64,000 nt of DNA from Alphaproteobacteria bacterium (GTDB lineage Bacteria; Pseudomonadota; Alphaproteobacteria; MPNO01; UBA830): assembly GCA_964291215.2 (NCBI GenBank), contig OZ219790.1:1344001-1408000 (forward strand), written 5' to 3'. Within the stretch, counting starts at the first letter, position 1; every line of letters begins with the position of its first letter. Shown here piece after piece: positions 4,893-50,079 of the stretch. The position numbers were made by a program, and so were the translations under genes. The notes under the pieces are model-generated. The model ran no database searches and had not been told where the DNA came from. It saw only the letters and a program-made list of their open reading frames with translations.

Positions 4893-5203
4893 ATCGGGAT
4901 AGGGTGGAGCCTCACGGCTCCACCCCTCCCACACCACCGTGCATACGGGTCCGTACACAGCGGTTCGACGGATTTAAGCTGCGGCACGGCATCGCAGGGT
5001 GGCGAGGTCGAGCCTGTCGAAGAAGGCATTGGGTAGCGCGTATGCGAGCGCGGGGCTGTTGCTGAGCCGCCATGGGCCGTGGGCACTGCCGGCGGTTTTC
5101 GCCGCTAGGTCCTTGCCCACACCGAGACGGCGTAGCGCCGCAAAGCGGGTCCGCCCGCGCTTCCACTGCATCCAGACGATGGCGCGGAGCCGCCGTCTGA
5201 CCC
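4893..5203 (-). mobile_element. 3' remnant of a class C (IIC) group II intron: maturase C-terminus plus domains V/VI
   Basis: VRRRLRAIVWMQWKRGRTRFAALRRLGV...HGPWRLSNSPAL, followed by gaaccgctgtgtacggacccgtatgcacggtggtgtgggaggggtggagccgtgaggctccaccctatcccgat. Truncated by IS256. Confidence 0.85.
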
Positions 5204-5756: not shown

Positions 5757-6665
5757 GTAACTGCTCGCCCCTGCTAATCATTGATCGCCTTTTCTGATGG
5801 CGTTCGCATCCAGGAACTCGCCGCCGATCCGGTCCTCGACGCTCTTCCGTCCCGGGAGAAGCACTGGCTCGACATCCTGCGCATGATCGCCTACCGCGCC
5901 GAAACCCGGAGGATGACGGCCGCGGCGAAGGAGCAGGGCAGGAAACCGCGCCCGCGAAGACCCCTCCGCGCCCTCCTGCAGGCCACGGTGATTCCATGCT
6001 GATTCCGAGACGCGAAATCCGAATGTGTCGGGGCTCGCGTTATCACGGATCGCCCCTTGATCGCAATTTTTCGCGCCGAGAAAGTCTCATTGAGCCTTGG
6101 CGGCACGATTGCAGCGCGACGCAGACCGAAAAATCTCGCCGGTCGCCGCTGGATTAGCGGCGTGGGATCGCCGTGGCCTGCAGGCCGACGCTGAAATCCT
6201 CTCCGAACTCGAACCGGGGTCCTCCGGGTGCGCATCCCCGGATCCGCCTGCAACGCCGGCGATGCCGCCATCGTGGGGCTGCTGAAGGAATTCAACAAAA
6301 CCGGTACCTGCGTTCTCGGAACCGAACTCCGCATGGTCTACGATCTGCCTCCGAAGCCCGCCTGAGCGGCCGCCGGAGGGCCATGGTTCTTGCCTGCCAA
6401 TTCTCCCGAGGTCAGGACATCTGAAGCTGCACTGCCGAACTCCTCAGCCGGCACGATGGAACCCGCGCCGCGGGCTCGACACCGCGTTGCTGACCCGGCG
6501 CCACCGGCCGGAAAGCAAGACCGGCCGAAGACCAGAACGGTTCTTGCCCACCGGAACCCGCACCTCCGGTTCCCGGCAATGGGCCAGGGAAGGGGACAAG
6601 AAAAGATGCTTGGCCCGAACGCCGTCAGGAACGGCAATTTATGACCAGCAGGGATGAGCAGTTAC
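5757..6665. mobile_element. Internally deleted element bounded by IS66-type terminal inverted repeats, containing a fragment of an unrelated putative transposase
   Basis: gtaactgctcgcccctgct at 5757 pairs with agcagggatgagcagttac ending at 6665. Internal LDILRMIAYRAET...LLKEFNKTGT...TELRMVYDL resembles an unclassified transposase C-terminus, ending ggtcaggacatctga (6424). Confidence 0.65.
5983..6176. mobile_element. 194-bp MITE with about 19-bp TIRs and an 8-bp target duplication
   Basis: cctgcagg at 5975-5982 and 6177-6184. TIRs are ccacggtgattccatgctg and cggcgtgggatcgccgtgg. Excision restores the reading ALLQADA. Confidence 0.8.
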
Positions 6666-7236: not shown

Positions 7237-7385
7237 GGCCGCCAGACGACCGAAACGACAGTCACATCCGGAAACACACGGCTATCCTTTCATGACACGT
7301 AACTACTTTCCCCTTGGTTTCGGCTTGCTTTGGTCGTTATTTCCCGAGAACCTTCCCGAGCGGGCCACGGTTTCGTGACAGCGGG

Positions 7386-7418
7386 TTGACACCGCAGACC
7401 GCGCCGGCTACGTAGTTT
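7386..7418 (+). promoter_or_regulatory. Candidate sigma70 promoter of the IS-borne methyltransferase
   Basis: Perfect TTGACA at 7386, also present at the equivalent position in the related elements (45071 and about 49432 on minus). The -10 match is weak. Confidence 0.35.
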
Positions 7419-7430
7419 CGTCGCTTCAGA

Positions 7431-8081
7431 CGGGGCTTCTATTTCGGATCAAAGGCGACGAACGGTCTGTGCCAGATGCTTCTGGGCCTCCAGCCCCCGC
7501 ATTGTGCTTATGTCGAAACGCACTTGGGAGGCGGGGCTCTGATGAAGCGCAAGGCCGCTGCGGCGCGCAGCATCGGGATCGACCGCGACCGGCGTGTGCT
7601 TGACGGGTTCGAGTGCAGCTACCCTGTGGAGCTTGTTCACGGCTGCGCCCACGCGTTTCTGGCCGGCTTCCCGTTCCAGGGCGCGGACCTGGTCTACAGC
7701 GACCCATCTGCGCGCGACCCGCCGATCGCGACGGCGGTACCGCCACGACTACACCGAGGCCGACCATGTCGCTCTCCTCGACCTGCTCAAGGTCCTGCCG
7801 TGCCAGGTGATGGTCTCGGGACACCCCTCGGCGCTGTATGACGACATGCTGCGGGACTGGCGCCGGATCGCGCTTCAGGTGACGACCCGGGGCCAGGTCC
7901 GCACCGAGATGGTCTGGTTCAACTTCGCGCCCGACCGGATGCACTGGGCCGGCCATGCCGGGCGGGACAGGACCGACCGCCAGCGCATCAAGCGCAAGGC
8001 CGCCCGCTGGGCTACAAGAAGATGCCGCCGGGCGAGCGCCTCGCGGTGGTCTCTGCGATCATGGCGGCGGAGGCGGAGTGA
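7431..8081 (+). pseudogene. Dam/D12-class DNA adenine methyltransferase, frameshifted
   Basis: YFGSK, YVETHLGGGALM (SAM-binding motif I), LVYSDP (the expected DPPY is cut by a small deletion near 7705), HDYTEADHVALL, VMVSG, RTEMVWFNF. Stop overlaps the transposase start (TGATG). Confidence 0.85.
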
Positions 8082-9507
8082 TGCCAACGGTGAACGGGGC
8101 ATCGCTGCGCGCGGAACTCGATGACGCGAAGGCCCGGATCACCACGCTGCGCGCGGACGGCAAGGTGTCCGAAGAGGTCGACGCCGTGATCGGGGTCCTG
8201 CTGCCGGGCATCCTGGTGGCGGTGTTCCTCGAGAAGGCCACGCCGAAGACCTCGCGCAACTCCGGCCTCCCGCCGTCGCAGACCGCGCGGCGCGCCGGCA
8301 AAGGCTCCCGCGGCAAGGGACCGAAGGCGAGGGAGACGGCATCGGGCAACCTGCGCACGGTCACCGTCATCGGGTCCAGCCCGGTCACCGAGTGCCGGCA
8401 ATGCGGCCATGACCTGTCCGCAACCGTGTGCGCCGGACACGAGGAGCGTGTCGAGATCGACATCGTCTTCGAGACCGTCGAGCGCCGGGTCGAGGCCGAG
8501 ATCAAGGACTGCCCGCGCTGCCGCGCCCGGAACAAGGGCGCGTTCCCCGACACCATGCCGGGGCCGCTCCAGTATGGACCCGGCATCGTTGCCTGTGCCG
8601 TGCACCTGCTCTGCGCGCAGATGGTCCCGTTCAAGCGCACCGCAGCCATGATCCGGGCGATGACCGGACGGCTGCTCTCCGAGGCCACGCTTCTCGGCTT
8701 CGTCTCGCGCCTGCATCAGGCGCTGGAACCATGGGAGGCCGCCACGACCGGGAAACTCCTCGCCATGCCCGTGCTGAACGTCGACGAAACCTCGCTGCGG
8801 GTGGACGGAAAGAACCACTGGATCCACGTCTGCTCCGGCGGACCGGTCACCGTCAAGCGGCTGCACCGCAAGCGCGGATGCGAGGCCATCGACGACATCG
8901 GCATCATCCCACGCTACCCAGGCGTCATCGTCCACGACTGCTGGAACTCACCTACGCACACTGCAAGCATCAGCTGTGCGGCGCCCATCTGTTGCGCGAG
9001 CTTCAGGCCGTGACCGACAGCAACGGCTGGCCGTGGGCGCAGAGAATGCGCAGGCTTATCGCGCGCCGGCAGGTCATGCGGCGGCCGGACAGGCGCCTCT
9101 CCATGCGCCAGTACAGGCGAATCGCACGATGCTACAGGGAGATCCTGGAGCAGGGCCGAAAGGAAATGCCCGAGATCCCGAAAAGAGAAAAAGGCCGCCG
9201 GGGACCGGTCGCCAAGTCCGATGCCCACAACCTTCTCGAACGCCTCGCCGCCCAGAGACGGAACGTCCTGCGCTTCTCAAGGCGGGCCGACACACCGTTC
9301 TTCAACAATCGCGCTGAACGAGACTTCCGGATGGCCAAGGTCAAGCAGAAGGTCTCCGGCTGCTTCCGAACCATCGCCTGCGCAAACGCCTGGTGCCGCA
9401 TATCAAGCTACCTCCGGACAATGGCGGCACTCGGATACAACCCGCTCGTCACCATCAACATCGCCCTTCAGGAAAAGGCCGTTGACTGTCTCAATCAACT
9501 CGAATAA
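8081..9507 (+). pseudogene. IS66-family transposase, frameshift near 8945
   Basis: KTSRNSGLPPSQT, CxxC Zn finger, QYGPGI, LNVDETSLRVDG, VHDCW, HQLCGAHLLREL, FNNRAERDFRMAKVKQKVSGCFRT. Confidence 0.92.
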
Positions 9508-9686
9508 TATCGGGGCAAGTAGTTACCTTGGACGCTGCATTCGAGGATTGGGCGAAAAGCTTGGACGACCGGGAGTGAGCCGCCCTCCAGCATTGCCCGC
9601 CGCCACCTCTTCCTGACGCGCCGTTCTGTCCGGAACCGCCTGCGCCGAGCGGATTTCTCCGACGCTGAAGCCAGAAGGGACCCGCC

Positions 9687-10257: not shown

Positions 10258-10815
10258 CTACCGGCCTGCCGGGCGGGTCTCCGGGCCCGAGACGCCGGCG
10301 CCCTCGAAGGTGGCCATGTCCGCATGGCAACGGGCGGCGGCCCTGAGCAGCGCGAGCGCCAGCGCCGCGCCCGACCCTTCGCCGAGGCGCATGCCGAGAT
10401 CGAGCAGCGGCGCCTTGCCCCAGAGCGCCAGCAGCCGCCCGTGCGCCGGCTCGGCGGAGAGGTGGCCGGCCTGGCAGGGGTCGAGGCCGGAGGGGTCGAG
10501 CGCGTGGAGCACGGCCGTCGCCGCCGCCGCGCCGTAGTCGTCGAGCAGCACCGGCACGCGGCCCATGCGGGCGGCCACGAGCGCGCCGAACATGGCGGCG
10601 GTCTCGAAGCCGCCGAGGCGGCGCAGCACCTCCAGCGGCGGCCGGCCGCCATGCCGGGCGGTGCCGAGCCGCACCGTTTCGACCTTGGCTTCGAGCCGCG
10701 CACCGGAAACCCCCGTTCCGGGCCCGGTCCAGTCCTCCGCCCTGCCCCCGTGCAGCGCGTGCGCAATGGCGGCGGCCGAGGTCGTGTTGGCGATACCCAT
10801 CTCGCCGAATCCCAC
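10258..10815 (-). pseudogene. cobT: Nicotinate-nucleotide--dimethylbenzimidazole phosphoribosyltransferase, C-terminal half only
   Basis: [38 protein letters not shown]. The N-terminal half is replaced by IS66 sequence. Confidence 0.9.
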
Positions 10816-11294
10816 GCTACCCAGGCGTCATCGTCCACGACTGCTGGAACTCACCTACGCACACTGCAAGCATCAGCTGTGCGGCGCCCATCTGTTGCGC
10901 GAGCTTCAGGCCGTGACCGACAGCAACGGCTGGCCGTGGGCGCAGAGAATGCGCAGGCTTATCGCGCGCCGGCAGGTCATGCGGCGGCCGGACAGGCGCC
11001 TCTCCATGCGCCAGTACAGGCGAATCGCACGATGCTACAGGGAGATCCTGGAGCAGGGCCGAAAGGAAATGCCCGAGATCCCGAAAAGAGAAAAAGGCCG
11101 CCGGGGACCGGTCGCCAAGTCCGATGCCCACAACCTTCTCGAACGCCTCGCCGCCCAGAGACGGAACGTCCTGCGCTTCTCAAGGCGGGCCGACACACCG
11201 TTCTTCAACAATCGCGCTGAACGAGACTTCCGGATGGCCAAGGTCAAGCAGAAGGTCTCCGGCTGCTTCCGAACCATCGCCTGCGCAAACGCCT
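10809..11294 (+). repeat. 486-bp direct duplicate of IS66 transposase segment 8906-9391
   Basis: Appears identical by eye (offset 1903), including the same frameshift. Confidence 0.9.
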
Positions 11295-11701
11295 AGTGTC
11301 TTGTCATTCGTCAAATGTCGAATAAAGGCGTTTGAGTTTCACGCGGGCATCGTCGGTGGTGAACTGCCAATCCACCTTGGCCTGGATGCGGTCGCCTGCC
11401 AGGCGGCGACTTCCCGGCGTAACACCTCGATGCAGTCGATGCGGCGGTTCAGGCGGATCATGACGTTGAGTTCCACCACGTTCAGCCAACTGCCGTGCTT
11501 GGGGGTGTAGACGAACTCGAAGCGGTCCCACAGGGCCTTGGCCTCGTCCGGCGGGTAGGCCTCGTAGAGGGCGCCGGGGAGTGTTGAGATTGTCCATCAC
11601 CAGGGTGATGGTGGTGGCATCTTGGTAGCGCCCGGCGATGTCGGCCAGGAACTGCGCCCAATCGATCTTGCGCTCGGTTACCTTGGTCATGCGCTTGCCG
11701 G
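11293..11701 (-). mobile_element. IS630-family element, right-end fragment
   Basis: LVMDNLNT, YTPKHGSWLN, WQFTTDDARVKLKRLY. End ctagtgtcttgtca. Inverted copy of about 12400-12805. Confidence 0.88.
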
Positions 11702-34674: not shown

Positions 34675-34724
34675 GTAACTGCTCACCCGCTGGTTCCCGC
34701 TTGATGTCGGGGTAGAGCAACGAA
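34675..34724 (+). mobile_element. Solitary 50-bp IS66 left-end remnant
   Basis: gtaactgctcacccgctggttcccgcttgatgtcggggtagagcaacgaa matches the left ends at 45004 (+) and 49504 (-). Confidence 0.8.
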
Positions 34725-44928: not shown

Positions 44929-46338
44929 CCGCCGCCTGGAAAATCGCCCCGCGCGACACCTTCATCGGATGGACACCCGAGCAGCGTCAGAAGAACCTGC
45001 CGCGTAACTGCTCACCCCCTGGTTCCGGCATGATGTCGGGGTAGAGCAACGAACGGGTTTTCGTGGAAATTTGACACCCGATTCGTTTAGTGGTGGTCAT
45101 CGAGAACGACGGGGACCGCCAGTGGGCTACTTTGGATCGAAGGCGACGAGCGGGCTGTGCCAGCTGCTTCCGGGGCTCCGCATGATCTGTATGTGGAAAC
45201 GCATCTCGGAGGCGGCGCGCTGATGAAGCGCAAGGCGGAGTACCGGAAGATGCCGCCGGGCGAGCGCCAGGCGATGCTCGCAACGATCATGACCGTCGAG
45301 GCCGGGTGATGGCGATGGTCAACGCGGCGTCGCTGCGCGAGGAGTTCGAAGCGACCCGGATCGCAGCGCTGCGTGCGGCCGGCAAGGTGTCGGAAGAGGC
45401 CGTGATCCGGGTCCTCCTGCTCGACATCCTCATCGTCGTCCTTCTGGAGAAGACCACGCACGAGCCGGAACTCCGGCCTGCCGCCGTCACAGACGGACAA
45501 GAGCGCGAGGCGTGCCGGGAGCAACGGCAAGGGCCCGAAGCCGAACCGGCAGATGGGCGACAACCTGCGCAAGACCATCGTCGAGGAAACGGTCGCGGCC
45601 TGCGACGCCTGCGGCGCTGACATCGACGGCCCCGTCGATCGGGAGCGCCGCGTCCTCTACGACATCGTGTTCGAGGTCGTCGAGCGCCGCGTCGAGATCA
45701 AGGAATGCCCGAAGTGCAAGGCCCGGGGCCGGTTCCCCGACAACATCCCGTGCAGTACGGCATCGGCATCCAGGCCCTCGTCATCAACCTGCTGGTCGCC
45801 CAGATGCTGTCCCTGCGCCGTCGCGCTCGTGCAGGCGATCTCCGGCATCAAGCTCTCCGAGGCCTCGGCTATGCTTTCACGATGCGTCATGGGAGGAGGC
45901 CGCCGTGGCGCACCTCCTGCAACGCCCGATGTCGACGATTTCGGATCAACAGTAAGTGGCTCCATGTCGTGGGACCCTGACGTGCAAGTTCCCGCACCGC
46001 AAGCGCGGCCGGGAGGCAAGAGATCGGCATCATCCCGTGTTACAAGGGCGTCCTGGGCCTCGTACATGGGCCAGTGTAGCCACCAGCGGCAGCCACCTGC
46101 TGCGCGAACTGACCTTTGTCGCCGAGGCTGCCGCTGGGCGCGACTGATGAAGAGCCTGCTCCCTGCCACAAGGTCAACAAGAGCGCATCCAAAACCCTGA
46201 ACGACGCCGGGCGCTACCGCACCATCAGGGCGCCAGGGAACTGCCCGACATCCCGCCGCCGCCGAAAGGAAAACGTGGACGCAAACGCGCACAACCTGCG
46301 TCTCGTGAAACACGAAAACCTGCGCTTCATAGACGACC

Positions 46339-47863
46339 ATCGCGGTAGGGAACCGGGTTACCCCCCGCACAGAACCGGACGTGCGCTGTTCGCTCCTCCC
46401 CTGACGACAAGGCGCTGGTTTGGCCACGGGCTCAGTGGGCAGCGGTGAGGGTGTCTATGTCCCCGGTGAAGTCCTTTTGGGAGCGTCGCCGAAGGGCACG
46501 CAGCTGTTTGCATTGGTGTATGAACTTCTGCAGGCTGCTTCCTGGAACGGCGTAGTAGCAGCCGTTGATAACTCACCACTTGGCCGTTTCGTGCCGGTTA
46601 TCGTGCCACCGCCTGCGCAAGGCCTCCTTGATCCGCCGCAGGGTGCCCGTTTGCGACCGACCCTGAACCTGCCTTTCCTCGTCTGTTCGCAGAAGTGCGT
46701 CATGCCGAGAAAATCGAACGTCTTGTCCACGCTTCCGGCGGTTCGCTCTGGCAAACCGACCGAACTCGATGATTTTCCGGGTGCAGTTCAAGTGGGCTAG
46801 TCTCTCCCCAAGGTCTCAGCGCCGCCCAGATGCTGAAAGCCGCACACGAAGTCGTCCGCATAATGATCGTGTCCCGCTTGCGCCAGTGGTTCTGGAACCA
46901 GTCGCACGTAGTGCAGGTTCGCAAGGCGCCGCCCCTTGCGGTGTTCCCTTGCCAGTCGGTCCCTTCCATGACGCCGGCGTCACTTGATGATCAGACCCCC
47001 CCGGAGCATCGCAACCAGATGGTCGCGGTTGTCGAAGAACCCACGGGCGTCAACGATCCAGTTGACCTTCCGCCGTTCCACCGTGACGGCGCATGATGCG
47101 CCCCGGCCGGAACCGAGGAACTCCGTTTCGCGGCACCAGAATCACACCGCCCGCTGAAGAATCTTGTCCGAGGCAAGCGGTCGTTGCCCTCCATCCTCCT
47201 TGGGTATGTAAACCCCGGAGGCGCCCGGTACGCACCCCTGTGCACACGGGCGTGCAGCAGTTCCACACCCTCCGCATACGCTTGCCACACAACGCCCCGC
47301 CGCCGCGTCCTTCCTCAAGGAATGGAACGCATCGTGCAGAGCGTCGACCGTCACGTGGTGGAGTAAAGACGCTCTTCCGGGTTCCTCTTCGCTACCTGCG
47401 TTCAGCCGCCTGTGACCCCCGCTTCTGCGCGCGGCGCGGGCCAACCGCATTGGCCTTCCCTCCAGCAACTCCGCAGGCTCCGACGAACCCTTGTTCGCCG
47501 CCTTCAACGGTACTATGGCCGAATCTGACTTCTCGTTCATCATCGGTTTACGGATTAGTTCCTTTCCTCTGCGGCCCCTCCACGACAGAGGGGCAAGACC
47601 TCCCAGGTCCCTGCTTCGGCCATGGTTCTCGGACCCCGCGGAGCCCCCGTTCGCCTCACCAACGCGGCTCGTTGCCTTCGGCCACGACCTCGGCACTCCG
47701 GTTTCAAAGCATCTCGTGGCTCAATAGCCTGGCCTGCCGCTCCCCAACGCTTCGCCTGGCGCCTCACGACGCCCGACGCATGGTTCACGGAGAAAGTGGT
47801 GGTTAGCCTCTCTTCCTGCCGGGACTTGCACCCGGCCACATTCCACCAGTTTGCCTGGCGCAC
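46339..47863 (-). mobile_element. Second copy of the group II intron, same insertion site in the IS66 transposase
   Basis: GTGCGCC start at 47863, ccctaccgcgat end at 46339. Near-identical to 496-2009. Confidence 0.9.
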
Positions 47864-47898
47864 CCGATGTCAGCTTCACCAACAATGCCGGAGAACAG

Positions 47899-49504
47899 GT
47901 ATCTACTCACCCCTTGTTGGGTTCTGATTCATAGTGCTCGTTGATGATGTCTGCGGCTTTTCCGTCGAGGGCGATCTGGGTGGCGACGAGTGGGTTGTAG
48001 CCGAGTGCGGCCATGGAGGTGAGGTAGCTTGAGCTCCGGCACCATGCTTTTGCGTGGAGCGGAAGCATCCGGACACCTTGAGCTTGACCTTTGCCATCCT
48101 GATCTTCTGTTCTCCGGCATTGTTGGTGAAGCTGACGTTGGGGTCGTCTGTGAAGCGCAGGACTGACTTTTCGTGTTTCACAAGACGTTCGTGCAGGTTG
48201 TGCGCGTCGGACTTGCGTCCACGTTTTCCTTTCGTCGGGATGTCGGGCAGTTCCCTGGCGCCCTGATGGTGCGGTAGCGCTTGCGCACGGCCCGGCGTCG
48301 TTCAGGGTCTTGGATGCGCTCTTGTTGACCTTGTGGCAGACCTCGCGGAGCAGGCTCTTCATCAGCCGCGCCCAGCGGTAGCCTCGACGACAAAGGTCAG
48401 TTCGCGCAGCAGGTGGCTACCGCACAGCTGGTGGCTACACTGGCCCATGTACGAGGCCCAGCAGTCAGGACGCCCTTGTAGCACGGGATGATGCCGATCT
48501 CTTGCCTCCCGGCCGCGCTTGCGGTGCGGGAACTTGCACGTCAGGGTCCCACGACATGAAGCCACTTACTGTTGATCCGAAATCCGGTCTCGTCGACATC
48601 GGGCGTTGCAGGAGGTGCGCCACGGCGGCCTCCTCCCATGACACGAGCGCATCGTGAAAGCATAGCTGAGGCCTCGGAGAGCTTGATGCCGGAGATCGCC
48701 TGCACGAACGCGACGGCACGGCGCAGGGACAGCATTTGGGCAACCAGCAGGTTGATGACGAGGGCCTGAATGCCGATGCCGTACTGCACGGGATGTTGTC
48801 GGGGAACCGGCCCTTGGTCCGGGCCTTGCACTTCGGGCATTCCTTGATCTCGGCGCGGCGCTCGACGACCTCGAACACGATGTCGTAGAGGACGCGGCGC
48901 TCCCGATCGACGGGGTCGACGCCGTCGATGTCGGCGCCGCAGGCGTCGCAGGCCGCGACCGTTTCCTCGACGATGGTCTTGCGCAGGTTGTCGCCCATCT
49001 GCCGGTTCGGCTTCGGGCCCTTGCCGTTGCTTCCGGCACGCTCTCGTCCTTGTCCGTCTGTGACGGCGGCAGACCGGAGTTCCGGCTCGTTTTGCGCGTG
49101 GTCTTCTCCAGAAGGACGACGATGATGATGTCGAGCAGGATGACGAGGACGCGGATGACGGCCTCTTCCGCCACCTTGCCGGCCGCACGCAGCGCCGCGA
49201 TCCGGGTCTTGGCCGCTTCGAACTCCTCGCGCGCCGCGTTGACCGTCGCCATCACCCGGCCTTGCGCTTCATCAGCGCGCCGCCTCCGAGATGCGTTTCC
49301 ACATACAGATCATGCGGAGGCTGGAGCCCCGGAAGCAGCTGGCACAGCCCGCTCGTCGCCTTCGATCCAAAGTAGCCCACTGGCGGTCCCCGTCGTTCTC
49401 GATGACCACCACTAAGCGAATCGGCATGCAGTGTCAAATCTCCACGAAAACCCGTTCGCTGCTCTGCCCCGACATCAAGCGGGAATCAGGGGGTGAGCAG
49501 TTAC
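47899..49504 (-). mobile_element. Intron-free sister IS66 inserted in inverted orientation
   Basis: TIRs at 47899 (gtatctactcacccc) and 49504 (ggggtgagcagttac). 8-bp TSD gagaacag (47891-47898, 49505-49512). Confidence 0.92.
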
Positions 49505-50079
49505 GAGAACAGAAAATCAGGATGGCAAAGGTCAAGGTGTCCGGATGCTTCCGCTCCACGCAAAAGCATGGTGCCAAGCTACCTCACCTCCATGGCCGCA
49601 CTCGGCTACAATCATCACGTCGCAACCCAGATCGCCCTCGACGGAAAAGCCGCAGACATCATCAACGAGCACTACGGCCAATCAGAACCCAACTAGGGGT
49701 GAGTAGATACCCTGCCGCTGGTGGTCGATAACCCGGGATTCCTCATCATGCCCTGGCTTTCCGTCGCGAACCCTGGGTCCCGCATCCTCGCCATCATGCG
49801 ACGCCGACTGCCCGATGACTGGACCAGACGTTACAACATCACCCCGGTCCTCATCGAGACCTTCGTCCAGACACCGCGCTACACCGAAGCCGTCTACAAG
49901 GCCTCAGGATGGATCCGTGTCGGAACCAAGAAAGGACGAGGCCGCTACGCACAAGAAATTCGACAAGCCAAAAAAAGACATCTGGCTGAGGCCTCTGCGC
50001 AAGTACTGGAAATGCATCCTCAACCGGTGAAAATCGCCCGCAATCACCTCGTGACCGAACGCTTACGTGCAGCGGGTGC

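Follow-up and report, generated by a model that had tools for sequence, protein, structure and literature searches.

The window, a stretch of 64,000 nucleotides, carries at 7299–9526 an IS66 element of a lineage that we designate A, bounded on the plus strand by terminal inverted repeats (TIRs) at 7299–7313 (GTAACTACTTTCCCC) and 9512–9526 (GGGGCAAGTAGTTAC) that agree at 14 of 15 bases. Downstream of the left TIR lies a predicted sigma-70 promoter (7386–7414, plus strand; -35 box TTGACA at 7386–7391, 17-nt spacer, -10 box TACGTA at 7409–7414) with a predicted operator embedded in it (7393–7412, no strand assigned; half-sites CGCAG-N10-CTACG), followed by a leader (7415–7439, plus) predicted to form a hairpin over the ribosome-binding site, its 3' end shortened by an 8-bp deletion. 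These elements precede a Dam-fold pseudogene of the Upf31 family (7440–8081, plus), broken after 7439, 7705 and 8008, and a TnpC-type IS66 transposase pseudogene (8081–9507, plus), which is frameshifted near 8946 and has suffered several short deletions. The two genes meet at 8069–8083 (plus) in a GGAGG ribosome-binding site and a TGATG stop-start overlap (8079–8083), where the TGA of the Dam-fold gene (8079–8081) shares a base with the transposase ATG (8081–8083).

The features that define IS66 membership are all present: the transposase remnants match PF03050 in two fragments (E 1.4e-18 and 1.2e-14), the TIRs start with GTAA, kin of this copy have 8-bp duplications, and neither tnpA nor tnpB was seen between the TIR and the transposase, where the Upf31-like gene stands alone. 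The lineage-B transposase ORF additionally exceeds the NF033517 cut-off. We take this single-transposase organization to be that of the ISBst12-type elements, with which it shares the GTAA-starting TIRs, the 8-bp duplications, the PF03050/NF033517 transposase and the lack of tnpA/tnpB; it differs from them in that a conserved 219-aa regulatory gene, with a predicted promoter, operator and leader hairpin, is placed between the left TIR and the transposase. Most known IS66 elements lack a Dam-fold gene. Target duplication is missing at the window copy (flanks CATGACAC and CTTGGACG); a sister copy on C2, 98.7% identical to it, has a perfect 8-bp duplication.

The window copy is dead and decayed. 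The 8-bp deletion after 7439 removes the start of the Dam-fold gene, a 5-bp deletion after 7705 makes DPPY read DPSA, a 7-bp deletion follows 8008, and translation in the first frame stops at 7841, short of the coupled TGA. An earlier, sequence-only reading of this DNA had placed a methyltransferase gene within the TIRs; it was right about the position of a Dam-fold gene between left TIR and transposase, but what lies there is a pseudogene that has lost both start and DPPY. Assembly error is ruled out for the 7439 and 7705 deletions, since both recur in contigs assembled from X1 and X2 reads, and such contigs likewise led us to reject it for the lineage-C deletion. Most of the bases missing through the 7439 and 7705 deletions are present in run X3. 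All three runs belong to one study, of which X1 may be the source sample.

Short deletions of this kind are a general feature of the IS copies across the genome (including those at 7299–9526 and 45004–49710), which have many deletions of 5–10 bp, often between micro-repeats and common to several copies; several were confirmed in read-derived contigs, and the adjoining metabolic genes are intact. Elsewhere in the window, 490 bp of the lineage-A transposase (10809–11298, plus; 99.8% identical to 8906–9395) interrupt a frame at 10258–11298 that its translation labels cobT-like. A 909-bp element at 5757–6665 has IS66-type GTAACTGCTC at both ends and no cassette, with similar ends at several genome sites, and further group II intron pieces lie at 1808–1974 and 4893–4965 (minus).

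Two lineage-C copies form a three-level nest at 45004–49710, in which the outer IS66 copy (plus; 8-bp target duplication CCTGCCGC) encloses both a group II intron (about 46340–47863, minus strand; Rfam D1–D4 at 47624–47828) and a second IS66 copy of 1606 bp (47899–49504, minus; target duplication CTGTTCTC) whose transposase is broken. These copies had been read as a recurrence of the gene–transposase layout in a second lineage. They hold remnants of 42–62 codons, in which about 40 first codons are fused to the gene's end: 188 frameshifted nucleotides at 45122–45309 (plus) in the 45004 copy, and 42 codons ending in TGATG at 49380–49252 (minus) in the 49504 copy. In lineage C, a deletion between two AAGCGCAAGGC repeats removed the gene core, and joints omitting 461–465 nt were seen in runs X1 and X2. 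Full-length Dam-fold genes are present at two other lineage-C places in the genome, so the recurrence is true of the lineage and not of the copies cited for it. The remnant is in frame in 51 of 64 short copies; we rejected selection for coupling as the cause, because both repeats share one frame and the transposases are broken.

Genome-wide, three IS66 lineages (A, B and C) carry the Dam-fold gene, with 12 intact ORFs, all outside the window copies. Lineage A comprises two copies, both with pseudogenes. Lineage B comprises 11 aligned copies that are 99.4–100% identical, with ten intact genes and a perfect operator, and its transposase is frameshifted through deletions common to the copies. Lineage C has 191 left ends that include promoter and gene start, of which 177 lack the gene core and two have intact genes; its operator is eroded (TGCAG/TTAGT). 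Exact 8-bp duplications flank 10 of 13 lineage-B-type copies. In lineage C they flank 101 of 151 copies, with 95 distinct duplications overall, and 99 of 145 where the core is missing and a right end is present. Since 177 of 191 lineage-C copies lack the core and most have target duplications, the elements can do without the Dam-fold gene in cis, barring a spread of the deletion through gene conversion once the copies had inserted. No full-length lineage-A/C transposase frame was found in the genome, which implies that the lineage-C copies were either mobilised in trans or made uniform through gene conversion. A candidate helper, an intact transposase without methyltransferase gene at 34675, proved to be merely a left-end fragment, and the rest of the genome yielded no helper. 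More broadly, the genome contains hundreds of non-autonomous copies with target duplications for which no intact matching transposase was found in it.

In lineage C the operator is eroded, the gene core is gone and the copies have multiplied in non-autonomous form. Cassette loss may be tied to high copy number, on the example of one lineage in one genome; against such a link, lineage B has also spread (11 copies) while keeping gene and operator. Loci L079–L082 have a half-eroded operator alongside an intact gene. We also considered selection on the lineage-B gene after loss of its transposase, comparing nine shared transposase deletions with one at the variable 3' end of the gene, and set it aside, as the deletions are too few and mostly in frame.

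As reference for the encoded protein we used P0001, an intact lineage-B homologue of 219 aa, which has homologues in 3666 clusters at E <= 1e-10. Its structural model (pLDDT 74.9) has EcoDam as best match (Z 17.6, rmsd 2.3, 148 of 244 residues aligned), with residues 1–167 corresponding to EcoDam 7–270. Motifs I and IV lie about 92 residues closer together than they do in DpnM, which indicates that the target-recognition domain is missing. Among close homologues, DPPY is present in 120 of 120 (and in 138 of 144 covered distant homologues), and motif I (E[TS]HLGGG) and the motif II aspartate D50 are strongly conserved; some IS members have the canonical motif I EPFLGGG. At the motif III aspartate, 98% of the close group have a cysteine instead. 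Scores fall below the family cut-offs for both PF02086 (14.3 bits against 22) and TIGR00571 (24.6 against 114.85), and a homodimer prediction scored 0.28 against a mark of 0.42. Compared with the Dam/D12 alpha-class N6-adenine methyltransferases (EcoDam, T4Dam, DpnM), the protein is alike in catalytic fold and motif order with DPPY, but lacks some 90–100 residues of target-recognition domain, has a helical C-terminal tail in addition, and stays under the Pfam/TIGR cut-offs; its tested relative Upf31 showed no GATC methylation. As modelled, the IS-borne protein is a Dam catalytic fold with DPPY and without a target-recognition domain, and not a Dam.

The tail of the window gene (DRQRIKRKAARW) had been regarded as an extra basic extension. 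It is not specific to the IS, and corresponds to a helical C-terminal domain conserved in homologues and common to plasmid and phage members. W194 is invariant (118 of 118) among the close homologues, 76% of which (n=120) have F181; the tail aromatics read F/F/W in lineage B, H/R/W in lineage A (the window) and H/H or H/R/W in lineage C.

P0001 aligns over its full length (219 aa) with Upf31 of plasmid pB3 at 43% identity (E 3e-62). Upf31 lowered its own promoter about 50-fold, from 4.76 to 0.09 units, for which the tail residues Y180, F185 and W198 were required; these align with F176, F181 and W194 of P0001 (PMC11997246). The same study reports neither GATC nor SMRT-detectable methylation by Upf31, the SMRT test having used E. 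coli ER2796, an expression vector and motif finding, and not pBP136 (PMC11997246). It further states that overexpressed Upf31 caused no cost in the absence of its plasmid, proposes a contact with KorB, and describes a search covering plasmids only (PMC11997246). Upf31 (upf31.0; IncP-1beta plasmids pBP136, R751 and pB3) shares with the IS-borne family DPPY and the C-terminal tail, with its aromatics matched in lineage B, and its promoter has the TTGACA, the inverted repeat with 10-nt spacer and the register of the IS loci. The IS-borne gene differs in heading an IS, ahead of a transposase, in having a single operator where Upf31 has an array of three, and in its half-site (CATAG in IS loci and CGYAG in the window, against CATCG); the KorB contact proposed for Upf31 (PMC11997246) has no counterpart in the IS element. 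Repression by the IS-borne members is likely, though extrapolated from Upf31 at 43% identity.

The regulatory region is conserved along with the gene. Of 153 related loci, 149 have TTGAC 55–100 nt ahead of the gene, in a register shared with Upf31, and 86 distinct promoters yield the predicted consensus TTGACA-N-CATAG-N10-CTATG(CT), whose spacer is free and whose arms are conserved by position in 71/83/84/86/86 (left) and 84/85/86/76/74 (right) of the 86. The right operator arm overlaps the -10 box; the left arm sits in the promoter spacer, so its conservation is not explained by promoter function. The upf31 promoter has CATCG-N10-CGATG three times, in a register matching the IS loci. The operator half-site tracks the protein tree, with CATAG in IS loci, in their nearest phage relatives L093–L095 and in plasmid L234, and CATCG in Upf31, L131, L085 and L086. 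Across 44 distant loci, 109 sites were counted at spacer 10, against 4–23 at spacers 7–13, and 12 of the 13 exact operator sites of genome G000 are lineage-B promoters. The operator score averages 9.6 out of 10 where both tail aromatics are present (n=67) and 5.8 where neither is (n=5, one clade), and loss of F181 accompanies altered operators in two clades; as kin are not independent, this association is only a lead. In the element bodies and right ends, 102,655 nt of 46 elements contained one operator site, with three expected; we therefore rejected the right IS end as the place of a second operator or of a methylation site.

A leader stem is also predicted widely, with z < -1.5 in 67 of 89 distinct leaders and z -3.1 in the sister copy of the window element; the ribosome-binding region is unpaired at 24% in read-through RNA and at 43–45% in RNA from the predicted internal start. 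GATC pairs in the leader were considered as Dam sites and rejected, being missing in 34 of 89 leaders, and are taken as a by-product of the stem. In IS10 and IS50, the transposase is controlled by host Dam and by leader structure. The present elements resemble these in a low transposase promoter and in a leader hairpin predicted to block read-through translation, and differ in that the regulator is element-encoded and the site is a 20-bp bipartite one instead of GATC.

Genomic context supports the first reading in that the gene is part of the element. Among the best 80 of 556 genome matches (78 loci in 14 assemblies from several phyla), an IS66 transposase is next in 76 of 78 loci, the other two having a DDE_5 transposase and an unclassified neighbour; among the best 80 of 496 metagenome matches, 72 of 73 scorable loci (one lacked the anchor motif and six lacked downstream DNA) are IS66-type and one is DUF4277. 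Such best-match sets favour close relatives. A further 47 more distant loci (42 viral, three annotated, two genomic) gave no match to these transposases; distant homologues sit on P2-like phages, conjugative plasmids and islands, and a phylum sample of 401 genomes added only two other genomes, both non-IS. The TGATG arrangement, which had been offered as translational coupling, does exist in the window but is lineage-specific. In 76 of 78 genome loci the sequence would allow a stop-start overlap, against 9 of 73 metagenome loci, and in the 66 metagenome loci with the A/C transposase type of the window, 61 of which have a similar left TIR, it occurs in none, the gap being 2–61 nt; universal translational coupling is accordingly rejected.

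In a tree of 48 rows (midpoint root; L126 and L132 left out as short), all 31 IS-linked rows group together in a single clade (99/98) adjoining a phage protein. Genes that are 62–87% identical precede transposases that are 24–36% identical or unalignable, and intact gene and operator have been kept together in four or more IS66 lineages with divergent transposases, as well as in an unrelated IS. The latter is a 2785-bp DDE_5 element with AGCTCGACTTTGTACATT ends, in which the whole cassette precedes the DDE_5 transposase and of which two copies occupy different sites; at L215:1193–3976 it has 18-bp TIRs and the cassette about 500 nt inside the left end, both copies being in G401. IS1634-like neighbours at L153, L155 and L161 were dismissed as secondary insertions, and only L172 may be a true pairing. 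Synonymous codon changes exceed replacements in five of six comparisons. The cassette is portable and is likely to have originated in a phage or plasmid gene.

Of the roles suggested at the outset, control of transposition is the one we rate likeliest. To our knowledge, how TnpC-only IS66 elements limit their transposase has not been established. From the behaviour of Upf31 and the symmetry of the operator, we consider it moderately probable that these elements carry a portable autorepression cassette, in which a dimer at the operator limits a transcript that includes the transposase. Promoter, Upf31-family gene and transposase, which lies 0–60 nt downstream, would form one transcript (start site and co-transcription are predicted), and the dimer would bind both half-sites and block RNA polymerase. 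A newly arrived element would thereby undergo a burst of transposase followed by shut-down, the repressor from one copy would damp every copy sharing the operator, and read-through transcripts would have their ribosome-binding site masked by the leader hairpin. Counting against a pure repressor is the strong conservation of DPPY and of motifs I and II, for which it has no obvious need.

This conservation is what an active methylase with a very rare target would account for, the target being its own 20-bp operator and the methyl mark the switch, a reading that we regard as unlikely. Intact homologues do not lack DPPY (120 of 120 close ones have it), which leaves room for methylation of the promoter operator; hardly any variation is seen in the operator adenines, and none in the -11 A of the -10 box (86 of 86). 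Because the SMRT test relied on a vector in ER2796 and motif finding and not on pBP136, it could have overlooked methylation confined to a small number of long sites. Yet that study records no methylation for Upf31 (PMC11997246), the motif III aspartate is mostly cysteine, and the half-site variants (CGCAG/CTACG in the window, CATCG/CGATG in Upf31) alter different adenines, which leaves no single target base common to both arms. An improbable corollary is that transposase expression would follow replication, through hemimethylation, or arrival in a new cell. In its widest form, which we hold doubtful, a Dam-fold dimer lacking a recognition domain would both read and methylate the 20-bp operator including the -11 adenine, as a self-encoded, swappable epigenetic switch in IS, plasmids and P2-like phages that licenses transposase only once the DNA has replicated or reached a naive cell, and loss of the switch would lead to runaway of a lineage (the 177 core-less copies).

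A genome-wide or non-specific adenine methylase, protecting from restriction or rewriting host methylation as the sequence-only reading had also proposed, is very unlikely. The Dam fold and catalytic motifs are intact, homologues ride conjugative plasmids and P2-like phages, ten lineage-B copies hold an intact gene beside a frameshifted transposase, and autoregulation would suit a harmful methylase too; but the target-recognition domain is missing, profile scores are below cut-off, 177 copies persist without the gene core, and overexpression of Upf31 neither gave a methylation signal nor, when its plasmid was absent, imposed a cost (PMC11997246). Least probable of all is a hitch-hiker, an autoregulated gene whose promoter and ribosome-binding site the IS captured and which has no effect on transposition: dispensability in cis, the lack of overlap at all 66 metagenome loci with an A/C-type transposase and the many IS66 elements without the gene would fit it, but not the maintenance of an intact gene with operator across divergent IS66 lineages and an unrelated IS, nor the excess of synonymous changes, and a repressor of that promoter must also limit any co-transcribed transposase.

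Passenger methyltransferases of IS elements are mentioned in ISfinder, TnPedia, REBASE and reviews. The literature that we searched, which lay outside ISfinder, TnPedia, REBASE and subscription reviews, yielded no description of IS66 with an Upf31-type module. IS66 elements and Upf31 are each known, and their combination did not turn up in that literature; new here are the census of cassette loss, an operator that tracks both tree and tail residues, and the finding that the overlap is not general. Should the autorepression reading hold, a large family annotated as 'DNA adenine methylase' (3666 clusters) may be a portable autoregulator of IS, plasmids and phages, and many annotations and methylome predictions would need correction. 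The precisely defined operator supplies a sequence basis for Upf31 binding, and this genome provides a natural comparison of the states before and after loss of the cassette.

Two observations concern the non-IS homologues. L085 and L086, both with CATCG, lie on a common island with glycosylase-like and nitroreductase-like genes, and L085 also with a RadC-like gene (labels from translations). In the P2-like phage homologues L093–L133, operator arrays occur about 200 nt upstream of the match, and their junctions have clusters of CTGCAG, TGGCCA and GGTACC, 26-, 21- and 10-fold over the flanks, which recall the restriction-site clusters at IncP-1beta repeats.
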